Assembly: GCA_025201805.1 (NCBI GenBank)
Contig: MU619389.1
Coordinates: 1-64,000 of the forward strand
Length of the DNA: 64,000 nucleotides
Direction: 5' to 3'
Source: Parasitella parasitica NRRL 2501
Taxonomy: Eukaryota; Fungi; Mucoromycota
A program made the position numbers and the translations under genes. The notes below the pieces were generated by a model that was not told where the DNA came from, made no database searches, and saw only the letters and a list, made by a program, of their open reading frames with translations. Each line of letters starts with the position of its first letter. The stretch's first letter is position 1. Shown piece by piece: positions 1 to 51,424 of this stretch.

Positions 1-172
1 ACTGCAATTTCAGATAGAATGGCTGTGGAAAGAAAAATATATGAAACAAAGTTATTCACATGAATCTCTGTGCATTTAACCTTGCACCAAAAATCTTTTA
101 ACTTTGCACACCTAAATGTTTTTGCTAGTGCATCAATAATTTCCGGAAATAGTGTATGACAATCTTAACGGA

Positions 173-1232
173 TCGGTGTCCTCACTCATTTTTTTGGTGT
201 CAATGTCGGTGTCGGTGTCGGTGTCGGTGTCGNNNNNNNNNNNNNNNNNNNNNNNNNNNNNNNNNNNNNNNNNNNNNNNNNNNNNNNNNNNNNNNNNNNN
301 NNNNNNNNNNNNNNNNNNNNNNNNNNNNNNNNNNNNNNNNNNNNNNNNNNNNNNNNNNNNNNNNNNNNNNNNNNNNNNNNNNNNNNNNNNNNNNNNNNNN
401 NNNNNNNNNNNNNNNNNNNNNNNNNNNNNNNNNNNNNNNNNNNNNNNNNNNNNNNNNNNNNNNNNNNNNNNNNNNNNNNNNNNNNNNNNNNNNNNNNNNN
501 NNNNNNNNNNNNNNNNNNNNNNNNNNNNNNNNNNNNNNNNNNNNNNNNNNNNNNNNNNNNNNNNNNNNNNNNNNNNNNNNNNNNNNNNNNNNNNNNNNNN
601 NNNNNNNNNNNNNNNNNNNNNNNNNNNNNNNNNNNNNNNNNNNNNNNNNNNNNNNNNNNNNNNNNNNNNNNNNNNNNNNNNNNNNNNNNNNNNNNNNNNN
701 NNNNNNNNNNNNNNNNNNNNNNNNNNNNNNNNNNNNNNNNNNNNNNNNNNNNNNNNNNNNNNNNNNNNNNNNNNNNNNNNNNNNNNNNNNNNNNNNNNNN
801 NNNNNNNNNNNNNNNNNNNNNNNNNNNNNNNNNNNNNNNNNNNNNNNNNNNNNNNNNNNNNNNNNNNNNNNNNNNNNNNNNNNNNNNNNNNNNNNNNNNN
901 NNNNNNNNNNNNNNNNNNNNNNNNNNNNNNNNNNNNNNNNNNNNNNNNNNNNNNNNNNNNNNNNNNNNNNNNNNNNNNNNNNNNNNNNNNNNNNNNNNNN
1001 NNNNNNNNNNNNNNNNNNNNNNNNNNNNNNNNNNNNNNNNNNNNNNNNNNNNNNNNNNNNNNNNNNNNNNNNNNNNNNNNNNNNNNNNNNNNNNNNNNNN
1101 NNNNNNNNNNNNNNNNNNNNNNNNNNNNNNNNNNNNNNNNNNNNNNNNNNNNNNNNNNNNNNNNNNNNNNNNNNNNNNNNNNNNNNNNNNNNTGTCGGTG
1201 TCGATGTCGGTGTCGATGTCGATGTTGGTGCC
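173..1232. repeat. (GTGTCG)n hexamer array flanking both sides of an assembly gap (233-1192)
   Basis: Pure GTGTCG units run into the gap at 204-232 and degenerate GTGTCG/ATGTCG units emerge at 1193-1232. The array probably caused the gap. Confidence 0.85.
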
Positions 1233-1256
1233 GTGTCTTATCTTTTTTCTTTAAAA

Positions 1257-2320
1257 ATGGAGGAAGATATAGATAACTGGTATTTGCCTTTTGAAATGAG
1301 GTGTGGGACTGATTTTACTGCTAAACTTACCCTAAACAACAAAACCATTATAAATATTATTGTTCATCAATTACTTGGTAAGTATGGTTTTTTTTTATTC
1401 ACGAAGCGGAATTTACACATTTATTTTTCATAGGATCAGATATTCCTAATAATGCATACATCTCTGGCTCAACAGAATGGGCAGATGGTAAAAGATCAGA
1501 TGCATTATATATACCAAGAAATGAAGTGACGCGTGATCTACCACCCATCTTGGTTGAAGTTCAAAATCATGTTGATCAACGATTTATGTTGAGGCTAATT
1601 AACTATTGCGCTAATGTGTATGATCGTTATGAGGTGTTGCCTGTTGTGCTTGTCTTTGTAGTAGAAAAATTTTCCAATACCATATTTGAGGAAAGTTTTG
1701 TTGAGAAAGCAAGTGCTCCATATATTCTAGAAACTCAGTGTGAACATTGGGCGAAGTCAGCTAACTTCGTTTCAGCCAAGTCAATTGAAAATTATATTCA
1801 AGACTCCATGGATCCATTTGTGGTACTTGCCTATTTCACCTCATCGCAAGCACAAAACTTGAAATCGCTAACGTTTGCTGCTGATTCGACAGTACGCTTT
1901 CTGTGGTCTATATGTCAAAAAAACATGATGAAGAAAAACCAGAATGAACTATATCAGGTTCTTGATCAAGCTACAAACAAAGTACAAGAAATAATCGAAA
2001 TACAAGATGAAGATCCTATTCTGATGCTGGAAAAAAGCCAAAACTTTGCCAAAGAGTTCCTAGGAATCATTGAGGGCCAGAAAAGAAAGTTAAATGAAGA
2101 ATATGAACTAGATCTACAAGCCTTAGAGGCACAAAAGAAAAAATATACAACAGAAGATTTTCTTTTTATCGAAAGCATGCCAGAGCCAAACAAGTCAAAA
2201 AACTGGAAAAAGATTTTTAATGCAGGAAAAATCAAAGGGTTATTTAACTCTTATACCTCAGCAAACTCTTTAAAAAGTTCTTACCACCATGCCGTTAAAC
2301 GTACCAAAAAACAAAAATAA
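1257..2320 (+). CDS. Rpn/YhgA-like PD-(D/E)xK nuclease-family protein (~335 aa) with C-terminal coiled coil and putative Myb/HTH-like domain; 2 exons (1257-1377, 1434-2320)
   Basis: ATG at 1257. A GT..AG intron at 1378-1433 joins MEEDIDNWYLPF..HQLL-G in frame to SDIPNNAY..TEWADGKRSDALY..PPILVEVQNHVDQRFMLRLINYC. The D...ExQ....RL..Y pattern is typical of Rpn/PDDEXK_2-type nucleases. The C-terminus (DFLFIE..NWKKIFNAG..GLFNSY..SLKSSY) is helical and basic. Confidence 0.75.
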
Positions 2321-2349
2321 CTTTTTATTTATTTCCAAATAAAGTATTT

Positions 2350-3009
2350 TCATTCTCTTTTTTTAATAATTGTCTCGCACAGCAAACTAATAGTTTGATT
2401 TTCTACGTTGGAAGAAAAGGATAATATCTTGTCTGGATGAGACAAAAACTGACATAACACAAGGAAAGCATTCATAGGTTGATCATTTAAAGGTGTGACA
2501 TCCAAATCGGAAAGAAACATCAGACATTTTTCTGCCCAAAAATCAGATTTGATCTTCACCAAATGGGAATTTGGTTCATCTACATTTGAGCCAAGACAGT
2601 CTTTGTGGGCAATAATTAATACAATTGGTAAATAATTGAATCTTTCGTAAACAAGTATACAGTATTGCATAATTTTCAGAATCAATACTTGATTAATTTC
2701 ACTTTGAATAGTTACGACTATTGGTTTGAAACGTTCGTCGCTTTCATTCTGAGATTTGTATACTTTAAAAAAACCTCCAGCCTCTGGCCATCCATTCTGA
2801 TGCACCACATAGTTGCTTTTTGGAACGTGTGTACCTATAAGTAAAGTCATGTGTTATATAAGAGCAGTGAGGTTTATAAGAAGGCTATGATGCATCATAC
2901 CGACCAAAACTCGAACGATCAGATTTATTATTTCTTGTTCATTCAGTAGAAGCTGAGCTATAAGATCTGCGTTTGACTTCCATTTAAATGGTAGATTAGG
3001 AGTATCCAT
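2350..3009 (-). CDS. Paralogue of the 1257-2320 nuclease lacking the catalytic residues (~197 aa); 2 exons (3009-2901, 2834-2350)
   Basis: ATG at 3009. The phase-1 intron (2900-2835) lies after the same Gly as in the neighbour. It aligns over its whole length (LPF..D..LLN..IINLIV..LVG; W; PIVVTIQ vs PILVEVQ; YC..VY.R..LP.VL; WA; M.AFLVL..F), but the catalytic D and E are replaced and the C-terminal domain is absent. Confidence 0.75.
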
Positions 3010-3142
3010 ACTCTCGTTTATTATCTATTAAGGAGTGAGTTTTTATGTACAATTTTTTTTTTTTTTTTTTGGTTACGAATTTTCCTAGCGGGTCCGGCTC
3101 GGTACCCCGAGCATGGTGAATTTTTATTTACCTTTTTATGTA

Positions 3143-3170
3143 CACCGACGCCGACACCGACAAAAAAAAT
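3143..3170. repeat. CGACAC/CGACGC units plus A-tract; inverted counterpart of the left (GTGTCG)n array
   Basis: CACCGACGCCGACACCGACAAAAAAAAT; its reverse complement ATTTTTTTTGTCGGTGTCGGCGTCGGTG resembles ATTTTTTTGGTGTCAATGTCGGTGTCGG at ~188-215. Confidence 0.6.
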
Positions 3171-3715
3171 ACGGGTCCTAATCCCTCAGAACGCTCGTAT
3201 AACTCTAACCCTAAATTCCTAGTCTCTATTATGGCTCGGATCCTTTTTCCACTTTCATCGAATTGTCCTCCTTTCAATCCCTTTTTTTCGACTTTCATCT
3301 TTCAGAGCTAAAACTTATCCAGAGATTCTTTCGCTCTATTGGCGATGCCGTATATTTAAAACGGCAATATTGAGTAAGAGTTGAAACGCTACACATTGTT
3401 GATTAAGGCATGTAATGCCATAACTGCTGAAATTCTATACAACTCCCCCCTCCCCCTCATGTTATAAAAAAAACACCATTCTAATCGTTTTTAAGTCAAA
3501 AAATACATATCATTTTTAACTCAATTTGATTTAGCTTATTGTGACATTTCTTTATTTCAAAAGGACAAAATTTCTAGACATACAGGGACAATCATTTTTG
3601 GCTTAATGCCATTAATTTTTTGGTTATGGACATTTGATTTTCTCAAAGTGACAAAATTTACCGTTCTCACTGTATTCCTTGACAAGAGGGTACTTTTTAC
3701 TTTTCCATTTTTTTT

Positions 3716-5935
3716 TAACAAGGGGTTATTGCAGCAAAATATTCATTAGTTATCTTCTTGTGCTCCCAATTTGATGGGTCACACCTGTTTTATCATATTA
3801 TTATGAATGAAGGTATACTTGCGGTACCAAAAATGCCTACTTTATAGAGCTGTGTCTTGTACTAGACTTGAAATTGACTTGATATCATCTCCAGATAGAT
3901 ATTTTTTACAGCTTAAAAGCAAAAACTTTAGCTTCGCGTGCCATTTTTTGATTGATTTTCATAATCAAAAGTGCCCTGGAAATGCCAGAAATAGTATCCA
4001 TTGGGAAAAAACTATATTATAAATGATTTTGGTGCAATTTAAGCATATTTTTTTTTCGATACAAAATGACGGATTTTTTCGATTTTTTCCTTGTATCCAC
4101 ACATCCAAAATCATCAATTATGCATTATTCTCAATTTTGACCCCAAAAATACAACTTTTTACTATGGCATATATTGGATGACTTCCAAAACTAAAAAATG
4201 AATAAATTTTATTCATTTGTCAACTCCGTTAGATTGAGATTCGTCCCGATATAAACCACGATTTATTTGCGTTTATTCACGTCAATAAAGGTTGTTAATA
4301 TCAGTATAAAACTTCGATTTTATTGAGACATTGTGGTTCGATGGCTTTTTACAGTTGATGTACAAGAAATCAAGATTACTATTTTATAATATTCATATAA
4401 TATTAAGTTAAAGGTGCTTTTGTTTACAAATAATACAAATGAACGAAAACACACGAAGTAAAGGTGCATCGTAAAGATAAAAATAAGGACGAAGACGGCG
4501 ACAACGAAGATTGGGGGGAAGAAAAAGATGTGAATAAGAAAATGTTAAGGACGTCAGAGGCAAAAGCCCTAAGCGTGATTAAATGCTATGGAGTGGTTTT
4601 TTTTTTTTTTTTTTGCATAAATTCTTTATTCATCGTTTAATTTGGCCTCTACCCCCCTCGTCAGATTTGGCTGTAAATCACAAAAAGTGAATAAATTTTA
4701 TTCACTCGTTATTCACGTCTTTTGAACATCCGAATATTTTCAATCCCAATTGAATAACAGATTTATTCACGATTTTATTTATTCAAGTTTTGGAAGTCGT
4801 CCATTGGAGGAAAATGATCGTAAAAGACCACTCCTTGATCTGAAAGACTGGAAATGCTTTCTGATTAAGCAGAATTTTGACTTTTCCCTCATAATCTGTT
4901 TTGAGGTTTTCTCGATATAATTTCTCCCATAAGAATACGAGAATTATGAAATAATACCATCCGTGTAGAGCGTCCAAAAATACAGCTATTATCATAGACT
5001 GAAAGCCGTGGTATGCATAGTATCAGGGGATGGTATCTTGCCTTAAAGAAGTAATTTTGTTTTCTAATTGTACAAATGGAGTTTTGAAAGAATTTTTGCT
5101 TCCTGATTTTGGTCGCGTTTAATCTCCGCTATCCAAGGAAGATGGTGCTTTTTTTTGAAGAAAGCATTAGCTTCAAGAAGCCAAAGCTTGCCCAATTCAA
5201 GAGAAAAATAGCTGCAAACTAGTTTATTTAAATTTTATGCTTCTTTGCTTTCTAATGGTGGAACTTGCATGTCTGTAACTAGCTTGACGATCTCACGCTT
5301 CGATTTTGAAGAATACTTTTCCGAAAAAAGTCAGAAAAGTCGTTACCTTCATCTGATTTCAACTCAAAGAGCACAAAAACTTGCTCAAAGTTATGCAAAT
5401 ATGTAATGAAAAAGTGTATTATAGTCTAATGTATTAATTTAAATTACTCGATTTTGTGTCTGAAATTGCCAAACATTGTTTCCTCACAGTTTTTGTCTTT
5501 CTTCTGACAATTACACACTGAAATTGGCGTAGACCCAAAAAAAAAAAAAAAGGAAAGCAGAAAAAAATCAGGCGCCTAAAATCTACGCAGGCATTGCAAA
5601 GACAAACACATTTGGACCATTCCAATATTATGGAAAATATAGCACAAGGTTGATTAGCTGCTCTATTGTGCAACTGGATATACAGAATTCAACTTGGTAC
5701 TTGTCTGACAAGAACTTCTACACTAGAAGACGCCAGATCAACTGAAGGTATAAGAAAGTGCTAAAGAAAAGAAAACAATCTACCACCAGGATAAAACACC
5801 CATTCACAAAGAATTATCTCTATAGAAATTTATAAAAATCCCAAGGGCACAAGCGTGTTTATCTTCAACCTTGCTCTCCGTTCCTGAATCAAAGGTTTTT
5901 TAATCCCAGAATCACAGATGGTTGCCAATAGATAA
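3716..5935. repeat. Dispersed repeat, copy 1 (unclassified, probably a decayed TE), interrupted by a MITE
   Basis: Near-identical, same-orientation match to ~47800-49400 (e.g. the ORF-track peptides at 5434-5673 and 48897-49136 are almost identical). Confidence 0.9.
4176..4802. mobile_element. 627-bp MITE with 17-bp TIRs and 3-bp ATT target-site duplication (PIF/Harbinger/Tourist-like)
   Basis: TIRs GGATGACTTCCAAAACT ... AGTTTTGGAAGTCGTCC (one mismatch); ATT at 4173-4175 and 4803-4805. The empty site (GGCATATATTGGAGGAAAATG) is present in repeat copy 2 at ~48256-48276. Confidence 0.92.
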
Positions 5936-47799: not shown

Positions 47800-49400
47800 T
47801 AACAAGGAATTATTACAGTAAAGCATTGTCTTCATTAATTATTCTCTTCTGCTTCCAACTCGATGAGCCGCACCTGCTTTACCGTATTACTATAAAGAAA
47901 GGTATACTTGTGCCATCAAACTCACTTACTTTATAGAGCTGTGTTATGTATTAGAATTGATATTGACGTGATATCATCTCCAGATAGATATTTTTTTACA
48001 GCTTAAAAGCAAGAACTTCAGCTTCATGTGCCTTTTTTTGATCGATTTCATAATCAAAAGTGCCCTGGAATCGCCAGAAATAGTATCCATTGGGAAAAAA
48101 CTATATTATATATGATTTTGGTGCAATTTGAGCGTGATTTTTTTTTCGATGCAAAATCATGGATTTTTTCGATTTTTTCCTTGTATCCACACATCCAAAA
48201 TCATCAATTATGCATTATTCTCAATTTTGACCCCAAAAATGCAACTTTTTACTATGGCATATATTGGAGGAAAATGATCGTTAAAGACCACTCCTTGATC
48301 TGAAAGACTGGAAATGCTCTCTGATTAAGCAGAATTTTGACTTTTCCCTCATAATCTGTTATGAGGTTTTCTCGATATAATTTCTTCCTTAAGCATACGA
48401 GAATTACGAAATAATACCATCGTGTAGAGCATCCAAAAACACAGCTATCATCATAGACTGACAGCCGGGGTATGCATAGTATCAGGGGATGATACCTTGC
48501 CTTAAAGAAGTAATTTTGTTTTCTAATTGTACAAATGGAGTTTCTGAAAGAATTTTTCCTTTCTGATTTTGGTCGCGTTTAATCTCCGCTATCCAAGAAA
48601 GATGGTGCTTTTTTTTTTTGAAGAAAGCATTAGCTTCAAGAAGCCAAAGCTTGCCCAATTCAAGAGAAAAACAGCTGCAAACTAGTTTATTTAAATTTTA
48701 TGCTTCTTTGCTTTCTAATGGTGGAGCTTGCATGTCTGTAACTAGCTTGACGATCTCACGCTCCGATTTTGAAGAATACTTTTCCGAAAAAAGTCAGAAA
48801 AGTCGTTACCTTCATCTGATTTCAACTCAAAGAGCACAAAAGCTTGCTCAAAGTTATGCAAATATGTAATGAAAAGGTGTATTATAGTCTAATGTATTAA
48901 TTTGAATTACTCGATTTTGTGTCTGAAATTGCCAAACATTGTTTTCTCACAGTTTTTGTCTTTTTTCTGACAATTACACACTGAAATTGGCGTAGACCCA
49001 AAAAAAAAAAAAAAAGAAAGCAGAAAAAAATCAGGCGCCTAAAATCTACGCAGGCATTGCAAATACAAACACATTTGGACCATTCCAATATTATGGAAAA
49101 GATGGCAAAGGGTTGATTAGCTGCTTTATTGTGCAACTGGATATACAGAATTCAACTTGGTACTTGTCTGACAAGAACTTCTACAATAGAAGACGCCAGA
49201 TCAACTGAAGGTATAAGAAAGTGCTAAAGAAAAGGAAACAATCTGCCACCAGGATAACACACCCATCTATAAAAAATTATCTGTATAGAAATTTATAAAA
49301 TCCGAAGGGCACAAACGAGTTTATCTTCAACCTTGCTCTCCGTTCCTGAATCCAGTTAGAGGTTTTTTAATCCCAGAATCACAGATGGTTGTCAATAGGC
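47800..49400. repeat. Dispersed repeat, copy 2 (no MITE)
   Basis: Direct repeat of ~3716-4175 plus 4806-5935. Confidence 0.9.
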
Positions 49401-49885
49401 AGCCTTAACCTTTTTTGAAGACTACCTTGAGCTTAAAGATATGAGGTAGATAGCTCATCTCACAACACATTCTTTATATTTTCACTAGAATAAAACAAAG
49501 CAGTTATTCTTTTTCTTTACATATAGAAATCGCCACTTAACATCTTTTTTAGGGAGACTATATCTCTTCTCTCAAAAACTACTTAGCTTTTATCAGAAAT
49601 AAAAGGTTTTTGTTGCCAGAAACCCTATTATATATTATCACAATCACCATGATTTTTATCATTTACTTGAACTTTTTTTTCATTTTTTTTTTCAGAAACT
49701 GCAAAATGACAAGTGTCGCGATAGTACTAAATCCGAAAAGTAAATACTACAGGTAAAGAAAATAGGTTGGGCCACTAAAAAAAAAAAATGGGCCAGCCAA
49801 AACAGCAATAAAGAGATAATAGGCGAGTTCGATACCAGGTATCGCTCTTTTTTCACTTTAGTTGGTATCATACTGAAATTTAAAA

Positions 49886-50174
49886 ATGTCAGACCCTCCC
49901 TCTCGGCTTTCAACTTTGCAATTACCTCATAGACTACGACCAGGCACAGATTTAATGTCGAAACAGATTTTGTTAGATCCTACTGTCACAAACATTATCA
50001 TTGACACTGTCCTTGATCCCCAAAGAAAACACCCAGTACTTACCTTGGCCAACAGAGTGGCCAAACTACACCATCTCTGATAAATTGTATTTCCCGAGCT
50101 CCCCAATTCTACTAAACTTTGTAATATCATCAATGAAGTATGAAGTCTCAAAGAAAACCACGCGCAACAAAAAG
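49886..50174 (+). pseudogene. Left arm: frameshifted, internally deleted Rpn-like nuclease fragment
   Basis: MSDPP..LPHRLRPGTDLMSKQILL..NIIIDTVL / frameshift / IPKENTQYLPWPTEWPNYTISDKLYFPSSP-ILLNFVISS; the ExQ segment is missing. Confidence 0.8.
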
Positions 50175-50179
50175 GGGTT

Positions 50180-50588
50180 CTTTTTGTTGCACATGGTTTT
50201 TCTTGAGACTTCATACTTCATGGAAGAAATCACGAAAGTTAATAAAATTGGTGGAGTTTTGTTGTGTTGGTGAAAAGCTGAAATAGCACAAGTCATAAGC
50301 CTTAACACAAAGTCATTATCAACCGTGTGTTGAACTTCAACTAGTATAGGAGGAAAATTGACATCATTTGGGGAGCTTGGTAAATACAACACATCAGAGA
50401 TGGTGCGGTTTGGCCACTCTGTTGGCCAAGGTAAGTACTGGGTGTTTTCTTTGGGGATCAAGGACAGTGTCAATGATAATGTTTGTGACAGTAGGATCTA
50501 ACAAAATCTGTTTCGACATTAAATCTGTGCCTGGTCGTAGTCTATGAGGTAATTGCAAAGTTGAAAGCCGAGAGGGAGGGTCTGACAT
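50180..50588 (-). pseudogene. Right arm: frameshifted, 3'-truncated Rpn-like nuclease fragment
   Basis: Same N-terminus and frameshift, then TEWPNRTISDVLYLP..FPPILVEVQHTVDNDFVLRLM, homologous to TEWADGKRSDALYIP..LPPILVEVQNHVDQRFMLRL at 1257-2320. Confidence 0.85.
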
Positions 50589-51424
50589 TTTTAAATTTCA
50601 GTATGATACCAACTAAAGTGAAAAGCATACCAGTATCAAGATACCACATTAGAGGGCACTACGGATTCAACTGAGATTGTCTTGGTATCATCTTTGGTGA
50701 TCTTTCCTTTTCCCAAAAAAAATAAGAGTTTTTTCAGCAGCTAGAAAGATATGAAGAAGAAAGGGAAAAGCATAGTGCTTTATTTTCATTACTTAAATAT
50801 TATGAAAATAAAGCGTGGCTCAGAGAGCATTTATCACATTGGAGGCCGGAACGGAGGCAATATCTTGCATGCAAAAAATCTTTCAATCACTATTTATGTA
50901 TCACTACTTATGCAAAACCTGAACTTATCAGGATGACTTGGAGCATGATTTCTGATTATTTCGACTAATTTTATCATTGTAGAAACCAATGTTTCTTGAA
51001 AGTTGCCAAGTTTTTGGCTGGCATCTTTGTATTGCTTGCAAAGACAACGCATAATCTACAAAGTGTCAGAAGTTGTTTGATGTCGTGCAGCGCTCTTGAA
51101 CTGCCAAGGGTGCTATGAAGCTAACAGCCATTGGAATCAGTTATAGCAAATGTAAACGCTTAGTATAAAGCAATCAAAGGAAAAATTGAGGTCTATAAAT
51201 ATGTTACTTGTGTTGGTTTACCAGATTATGTGCAACGAAATCCGAAGCAACCTTATATGTATGATAGCTTTACATGTCAAATTTTGCACTGATCATCGCT
51301 GCCATTCTCACGCGTAGTCGTGAGTAATGGACTTTTGATAATGGTGTGGTCTATTAGGTTATTTCTTTTTCCGATGTGAATAAATGTCTTGGATTTCGTT
51401 TTTCTTTCGCGAGACAAGAGAAAA

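Follow-up and report, generated by a model that had tools for sequence, protein, structure and literature searches.

A mobile two-gene module of Mucoromycota combines a predicted Rpn-like nuclease with a paralogue lacking its catalytic residues and may be a poison-antidote system

Background

Nuclease-fold killers carried by transposons are described in fungi (Spok) and in a beetle (Medea) (PMC6660238, PMC12693581, PMC11342252), and for the FuSpoks, addiction at the level of the nucleus is proposed to operate during vegetative growth (PMC12693581). Relatives of the Rpn nucleases are described as DNase toxins that are blocked by a protein encoded at the same locus (PMC10327210).

Here we analyse a window of 64,000 nucleotides from Parasitella parasitica NRRL 2501 (contig MU619389.1, positions 1 to 64,000), near the left end of which lies a real, conserved and mobile two-gene module (hereafter, the cassette) that comprises gene A, for a predicted Rpn-like nuclease, and gene B, for a paralogue of it. 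The titles and abstract openings returned by our literature searches contained neither an account of this cassette nor a killer or toxin-antidote element from Mucoromycota, nor any system in which the antidote is a dead paralogue of the element's own nuclease; the supplement of Zhang et al. 2016 could list the A family. The main text of a survey of fungal cut-and-paste transposons (PMC5751038) contains zero occurrences of YhgA or PDDEXK.

Two convergent paralogous genes

Gene A lies on the forward strand and consists of exon 1 (1257..1377), which holds the conserved D19, a 56-nt GT-AG intron (1378..1433) and exon 2 (1434..2320), which encodes the predicted PD-(D/E)XK domain, a helical hairpin and a basic three-helix tail (net charge +10), with the codons of D63 and E82 at 1499-1501 and 1556-1558, respectively, as well as those of Q84 and R94. 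An AT-rich spacer of 29 bp (2321..2349) separates its stop codon from that of gene B, which is read from the reverse strand: exon 1 (2901..3009), a 66-nt GT-AG intron (2835..2900) and exon 2 (2350..2834), which encodes a nuclease-like domain from which the catalytic pair of Asp and Glu is missing, and no tail. Once spliced, both frames are open and yield proteins of 335 (A) and 197 (B) amino acids. The NCBI models for Parasitella parasitica, with consecutive accessions, agree with this structure: P0001 is A from the second Met, with the identical splice, and P0039 is exactly B. The B intron is spliced out in two contigs of run X7, presumed to be an RNA run, whereas X1, X8 and X24 have no such contig. 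We infer that A is spliced as well from one X7 contig, which matches A exon 2 exactly and carries 184 further letters upstream.

The proteins are paralogues over the nuclease domain: blastp aligns them with 26% identity over 205 columns (E 1e-25), their local alignment score is 221 compared with a maximum of 61 among 1000 shuffles, and the A-family and B-family alignments match with an hhalign probability of 99.2%. Residues 5-208 of A are the sole part matched by B, and the GKRSD..LVEVQ motif of A aligns with AGGFF..VVTIQ of B. The splicing script, blastp, the shuffles and hhalign thus bear out the preliminary description of two convergent paralogues with stop codons 29 bp apart. The shared phase-1 intron at the same Gly also stands, with one correction: because both introns are in phase 1 and split the codon of the same aligned Gly (G41 in A, G37 in B), they lie inside this codon and not, as had been stated, after it.

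Protein A is a predicted Rpn-like nuclease

The structure of A was modelled from 110 sequences (pLDDT 90.8) as an alpha/beta domain followed by a helical hairpin and the basic three-helix tail; this model replaced a poor first fold from 19 sequences (pLDDT 49). The best structural matches of the N-terminal domain are to EndoMS/NucS (Z 7.8 and 7.6, rmsd 3.0, 105-110 residues) and then to McrC (Z 7.3), all middling Z values; Foldseek with the A model returned no match in the PDB at E 0.001 and two viral matches that reached this value. The model quality and the EndoMS/NucS match support the proposed PD-(D/E)XK fold, the lack of which would have spoken against the preliminary description; A is predicted to have a restriction-enzyme-like PD-(D/E)XK core and to be a DNA-cutting enzyme.

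The putative active site is well conserved among the A-type rows with a letter at the respective column (D63 in 91 of 101, E82 in 102 of 108, Q84 in 103 of 109 and D19 in 58 of 64). In an hhalign comparison with Escherichia coli RpnA/B/C (81.5%, 60 columns, E 1.1e-5), D63, E82, Q84 and R94 of A align with the same-numbered residues of RpnA, so that the D..ExQ..R pattern is present; in RpnA, toxicity is reported to be lost in the D63A and E82A mutants (PMC5350276). A itself matches none of PF04754, PF11103 and TIGR01784, its relatives score 13-21 bits compared with curated cut-offs of 21, 24.1 and 52.1, respectively, and among 110 family members, seven match PF11103 and four match PF04754 at E<=0.01. 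With family scores under the curated cut-offs, A is Rpn-like but is not a filed Rpn; the designation of an Rpn-like PD-(D/E)XK nuclease therefore holds on the strength of the fold, the hhalign match and the active-site columns, whereas that of an Rpn proper is not established.

A profile search with A retrieved 663 clusters at E<=0.001, the best 150 of which were listed; in the 14 A-type clusters that were looked up, all named members belong to Mucoromycotina. The tail of A may resemble a Myb/SANT-like DNA-binding domain; pieces of it had no match in Pfam, and it was barely covered in the fold searches. Sequence searches of the PDB with A gave helical or chance matches only, and a match to TnsC (E 0.004) was rejected as it was gone with a deeper profile.

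Protein B is an old, constrained paralogue

Across the 34 B-type rows, no acidic residue occurs at the D63 column (0 of 30 rows with a letter there) or at the E82 column (0 of 31), and none of these rows has the tail of A. In a 58-row tree (a quick, unrooted one, with rows picked for coverage), the 13 B-types make up one side of a branch with an SH-aLRT support of 100 and fall into four deep subclades. Among the members of 12 linked pairs, divergence is smaller for B than for the nuclease domain of A in 53 of 63 comparisons, which are not independent of each other (mean 0.22 vs 0.32). Given the lack of acidic catalytic residues, the single clade and the smaller amount of change compared with the linked A, B is, by sequence, an old, constrained pseudo-nuclease. 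Together with the splicing, these observations uphold the proposal of a dead paralogue kept by selection; constraint, open frames and splicing in X7 were found rather than a neutrally evolving or silent B. Among the few, selected variants listed, A in X10 has 10 silent and 17 changed codons, including a stop, and B, from mixed copies, has four of each kind.

The divergences of A and B are correlated across 20 pairs, most of them matched only by equal lengths of the source contigs (Spearman 0.87, 0.82 and, for a reduced set, 0.63; 0 of 2000 shuffles each). Such parallel divergence is expected from linkage and is no evidence of binding, so we rejected it as such.

The pairing is conserved across Mucorales

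A and B carry neighbouring accessions in several genomes (KAI8637001/2, KAI9485295/6, KAI9262864/6, BD560DRAFT_408576/8); such adjacent-accession pairs are found in Parasitella, Benjaminiella, Blakeslea and, from a distant subfamily, Helicostylum. In Mycotypha, Rhizopus microsporus and Gilbertella, A and B reside on the same contig, with adjacency not established. Part of the cassette stretch is present in 20 of the 24 listed sequencing runs, under 14 organism labels. Eight runs were examined in detail (X1, X7, X8, X10, X11, X12, X13 and X24), with the small-share runs X15-X20 left out. Among the seven of these that are not RNA, five (X1, X8, X10, X11, X13) have a single contig over both genes, X12 tiles the pair in overlapping pieces and X24 is without a spanning contig; in X7, each gene has separate contigs. 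The zero share of X24 was rejected as a sign of absence because its changes are almost only C>T/G>A, likely reflecting a bisulfite library. The adjacent accessions across Mucorales genera and the spanning contigs in five runs show that the pairing recurs elsewhere, as anticipated; homologues that are never paired would have been the contrary outcome.

Two observations count against a general pairing. No Rhizopus arrhizus B appeared among the B matches despite many A models from this species (P0009, P0077, P0092-P0094 and others); most of these A models are truncated C-terminally, and the annotation may have missed B there. Only two B-types are among the best 150 of the 663 distant matches, so that a B counterpart may be lacking for many of the 663 clusters, although a profile of A favours As. 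Scans of metagenome contigs, viral contigs and prokaryote genomes for the DNA locus, with narrow patterns that do not amount to proof of absence, returned nothing usable; two metagenome matches were rejected as chance.

The cassette is likely a non-autonomous transposon

The two genes lie between inverted inner arms. The left arm (152..232, forward strand) consists of a conserved motif (152-171) and a tandem array of GGTGTC-type hexamers (196-232, period 6). It is followed by an assembly gap of 960 N (233..1192), likely an over-sized join inside the array, and by a further stretch of hexamer array directly upstream of gene A (1193..1230, forward strand), which is inverted relative to 3142-3162 at 86-95%. 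The right inner arm (3142..3243, reverse strand) comprises the hexamer array at 3142-3162 and arm sequence, with about 50 bp of its relatives absent here. Two contigs of X10 join 152 to 3162 on opposite strands, and in the same run the sequence of the loose ends ahead of 1217 is the exact reverse complement of that following 3162; one arm diverges past 3200. In X11, from another organism, only 27 letters separate 171 from 1209 in a contig that connects the two. Given this connection in X11, the gap likely holds array only, and a gene hidden inside it is unlikely. Gene models of relatives read through the left-arm motif, P0024 on the A side and P0054 on the B side. The right arm also includes a short stretch (3204-3214) that resembles telomeric repeats.

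Beyond the right inner arm lies an outer terminal repeat (3539..3672, reverse strand), high in copy number and likely of the Tc1/mariner type, that starts with CAGTG and is bordered by a TA dinucleotide (3673..3674), likely a target-site duplication. Ends in which TA is followed by CAGTG are typical of Tc1/mariner elements. The outer repeat is joined to the inner arm through deletions of 3243-3539 or 3245-3610 in X10, X11 and X12; its depth forms a strong peak in X8, X11, X12 and X13 and a smaller rise in X10, and this terminus is far more abundant than the cassette. Loose ends with flanks that are unlike each other (agreement 0.44-0.64) pile up at 3674-3676 in the listed rows of five of the eight runs (X7, X8, X10, X12, X13). 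No left copy of the outer repeat was found within the window, where the left outer end is not seen; in X11, the depth of 676 for the arm compared with 490 for the cassettes hints at an outer repeat on both sides. Positions 1-151, which fall in a bin of high summed contig depth in X1, are unlike the expected arm and may belong to a different insertion that took the place of the left outer terminus.

No DDE gene is present between the inner arms, A and B being the only two genes there, and the gene model P0021 fuses a DDE_3 domain (E 8e-18), A and the same arm. The cassette is likely a non-autonomous Tc1/mariner-type transposon. Contig depth, a rough guide, suggests that X1 has about two identical copies along with two diverged ones, X10 about four, and X11 one together with about six more. 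In X10, A is both interrupted by a nonsense codon and frameshifted in a cassette contig with about fourfold the depth seen in other contigs; multiplication of the element thus does not depend on an intact A in cis. This agrees with transposition in trans and likewise shows that spread does not require addiction, should there be any. The arms, the TA-flanked end and the multiple copies per genome substantiate the selfish, mobile context suggested in the preliminary description, to which the inverted hexamer arms, the TA-flanked high-copy end, the copy number and the near-identity between organisms are additions. A Fanzor-like homing role was considered and set aside because TA targets give no fixed site.

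Two further observations concern transposon sequences nearby and in relatives. A very high-copy repeat occupies 3716-5931 and 47800-49398, with 87-95% identity between both, and adjoins both nuclease loci of the window; as the Tc1 DDE_3 motif of P0021 has a counterpart at 49250-49366 (E 8e-5), this repeat is likely a decayed Tc1 element. In Backusella circina, the model P0016 fuses part of A with a transposase of the DDE_1 (pogo) type, a second kind of transposase found adjacent to the A family.

Movement between organisms

At the DNA level, the cassette is about 98% identical to the window in X8 (36 differences over 1199-3162) and 96% identical in X10 and X11. The A proteins of Gilbertella and Mycotypha, which belong to other families, are 92% and 86% identical to A, respectively, compared with 58%, 71% and 35% for other Parasitella copies, a pattern that suggests horizontal transfer. 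Taken together, the inverted arms, the TA-flanked end, the multiple copies and the 96-98% DNA identity across organism labels make it most likely that the pair is transposon cargo moving between species. Parasitella is described as passing genes to its host (10.1101/2021.12.02.471044). In Umbelopsis nana, four A-types (P0126, P0267-P0269) that are 99% identical reside on four large contigs; by this measure, the A copies represent recent mobility outside Mucorales.

Function of the pair

Cargo that stays under constraint while moving between species most likely serves the element. The reading we prefer, to which we assign an even chance, is that B binds and restrains a DNA-damaging A, the two forming an addiction (poison-antidote) module. 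Under this scenario, an inverted duplication of an A-type gene would have given rise to B, which would account for the tail-to-tail arrangement as well as the common intron. Transcription of both genes would run inward from the arms, and B would occupy the self-association surface of A, yielding an inactive A-B complex. Where many nuclei share a hypha or spore, a nucleus that had lost the element or never carried it would suffer damage as soon as the supply of B was exhausted. DDE transposases would provide transposition in trans.

Two other loci show events of the inverted-duplication type. At 49850-50624 of the window lies a foldback relic of another A-type subfamily (71% to P0134), with 257-bp arms that are 97% identical; each arm contains the 5' part of the gene, the two are placed tail-to-tail with the same frameshift, and the forward copy is without a 39-residue stretch that includes the catalytic Glu. 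In Helicostylum pulchrum, the B-type and A-type proteins P0242 and P0195 (KAI9262864 and KAI9262866) start with the same 26 residues, which suggests that the arms reach into the coding region and are homogenised.

The strongest competing possibility, which we hold to be unlikely, is that B is a required non-catalytic subunit and A-B the working nuclease, for example, a nickase or a structure-specific cutter, that aids recombination or persistence of the element. B keeps the whole domain, and its greater conservation compared with A counts against the poison-antidote reading insofar as it fits a structural subunit and an antidote equally; no asymmetry of loss, with A lost before B, was established. 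XPF-ERCC1 and MUS81-EME1 are precedents for a non-catalytic subunit. Furthermore, in CifB, active and inactive REase domains alternate and the inactive ones are proposed to bind DNA (PMC11342252). However, B has no basic tail and all B-types checked are net acidic (-2 to -11), though the nuclease domain of A is mildly acidic too, and many A-types may lack B.

We regard as rather more doubtful the proposal that A, with or without B, is the transposase or end-processing enzyme of the element itself, acting through its basic tail on the hexamer arrays and representing a PD-(D/E)XK class of transposons. The lack of a DDE gene between the arms, the arrays at both ends, and the great diversity and dispersal of the family (663 clusters), with the four near-identical copies in Umbelopsis nana, would agree with such a role, whereas the CAGTG end flanked by TA is of the Tc1/mariner kind and far commoner than the cassette. 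Because of this end and the P0021 fusion of DDE_3, A and the same arm, the option of a two-subunit transposase raised in the preliminary description is weakened.

Improbable, in our judgement, is a benefit to the host, in which the nuclease would serve defence or interference at hyphal fusion, for example, between mycoparasite and host, with B conferring self-immunity and the transposon acting as the spreader. Bacterial Rpns are reported to be anti-phage toxins (PMC10327210), and Parasitella is itself a mycoparasite described as transferring genes to its host; against this, the several subfamilies and broken copies per genome and the near-identity across families, at no fixed locus, are parasite-like, and the cassette is also found in genera other than that of the parasite. 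That B is a neutral, decaying duplicate, a fate exemplified by the decayed foldback at 49850-50624, is largely refuted by the old clade, the open frames, the slower change compared with A and the splicing, and we consider it highly improbable.

Returning to the poison-antidote module, we tentatively propose, at somewhat less than even confidence, that the cassette is a cut-and-paste transposon that carries its own nuclease poison and, as the antidote, a dead, tail-less duplicate of that nuclease: a killer acting between nuclei of Mucoromycota and hopping between families, possibly via fusion parasites such as Parasitella. The cassette is small, with two short, conserved genes, and can be tested in yeast. 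Were it addictive, it would show how a transposon of small size may skew the competition between nuclei of multinucleate fungi and how a single inverted duplication may give rise to an antidote. Should A rather act on the ends of the element or require B as a subunit, a function would be gained for a large, unannotated nuclease family of 663 clusters and perhaps also a novel chemistry of transposition.

Comparison with known systems

Tc1-MP1 of Mucorales (PMC9977792) likewise has a terminal repeat flanked by TA, and the lengths are comparable (about 135-155 bp vs 141 bp), but its terminal sequence is unlike that of the cassette, the cargo of which is the A/B pair, with no transposase between the inner arms. 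CifB/CinB of Wolbachia resembles the cassette in that active and inactive REase-fold domains occur together in a selfish system; CifB, however, unites both domains in a single polypeptide, with a different type of protein, CifA, as the antidote (PMC11342252). Medea1 of Tribolium is a REase-fold gene on a composite Tc1 transposon that is linked to the killing of non-carriers; it differs in its NTPase-REase architecture and its animal host, and a dead paralogue is not mentioned in the relevant part of that report (PMC11342252). Spok of Podospora and Fusarium, like A, combines a PD-(D/E)XK domain with a coiled coil, is transposon-borne and moves between species (PMC6660238, PMC12693581), but it is one protein in which resistance comes from a kinase-like domain, whereas the A/B pair has no kinase. 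The Rpn/YhgA families (PF04754, PF11103, TIGR01784) share with A the PD-(D/E)XK core with the D..ExQ..R pattern, and RpnL/RpnS, like A/B, involve a sequence-related partner from the same locus (PMC10327210, PMC5350276); RpnS, however, is a C-terminal piece made from an internal start, whereas B is the product of a separate, spliced, convergent gene and matches the N-terminal nuclease domain.
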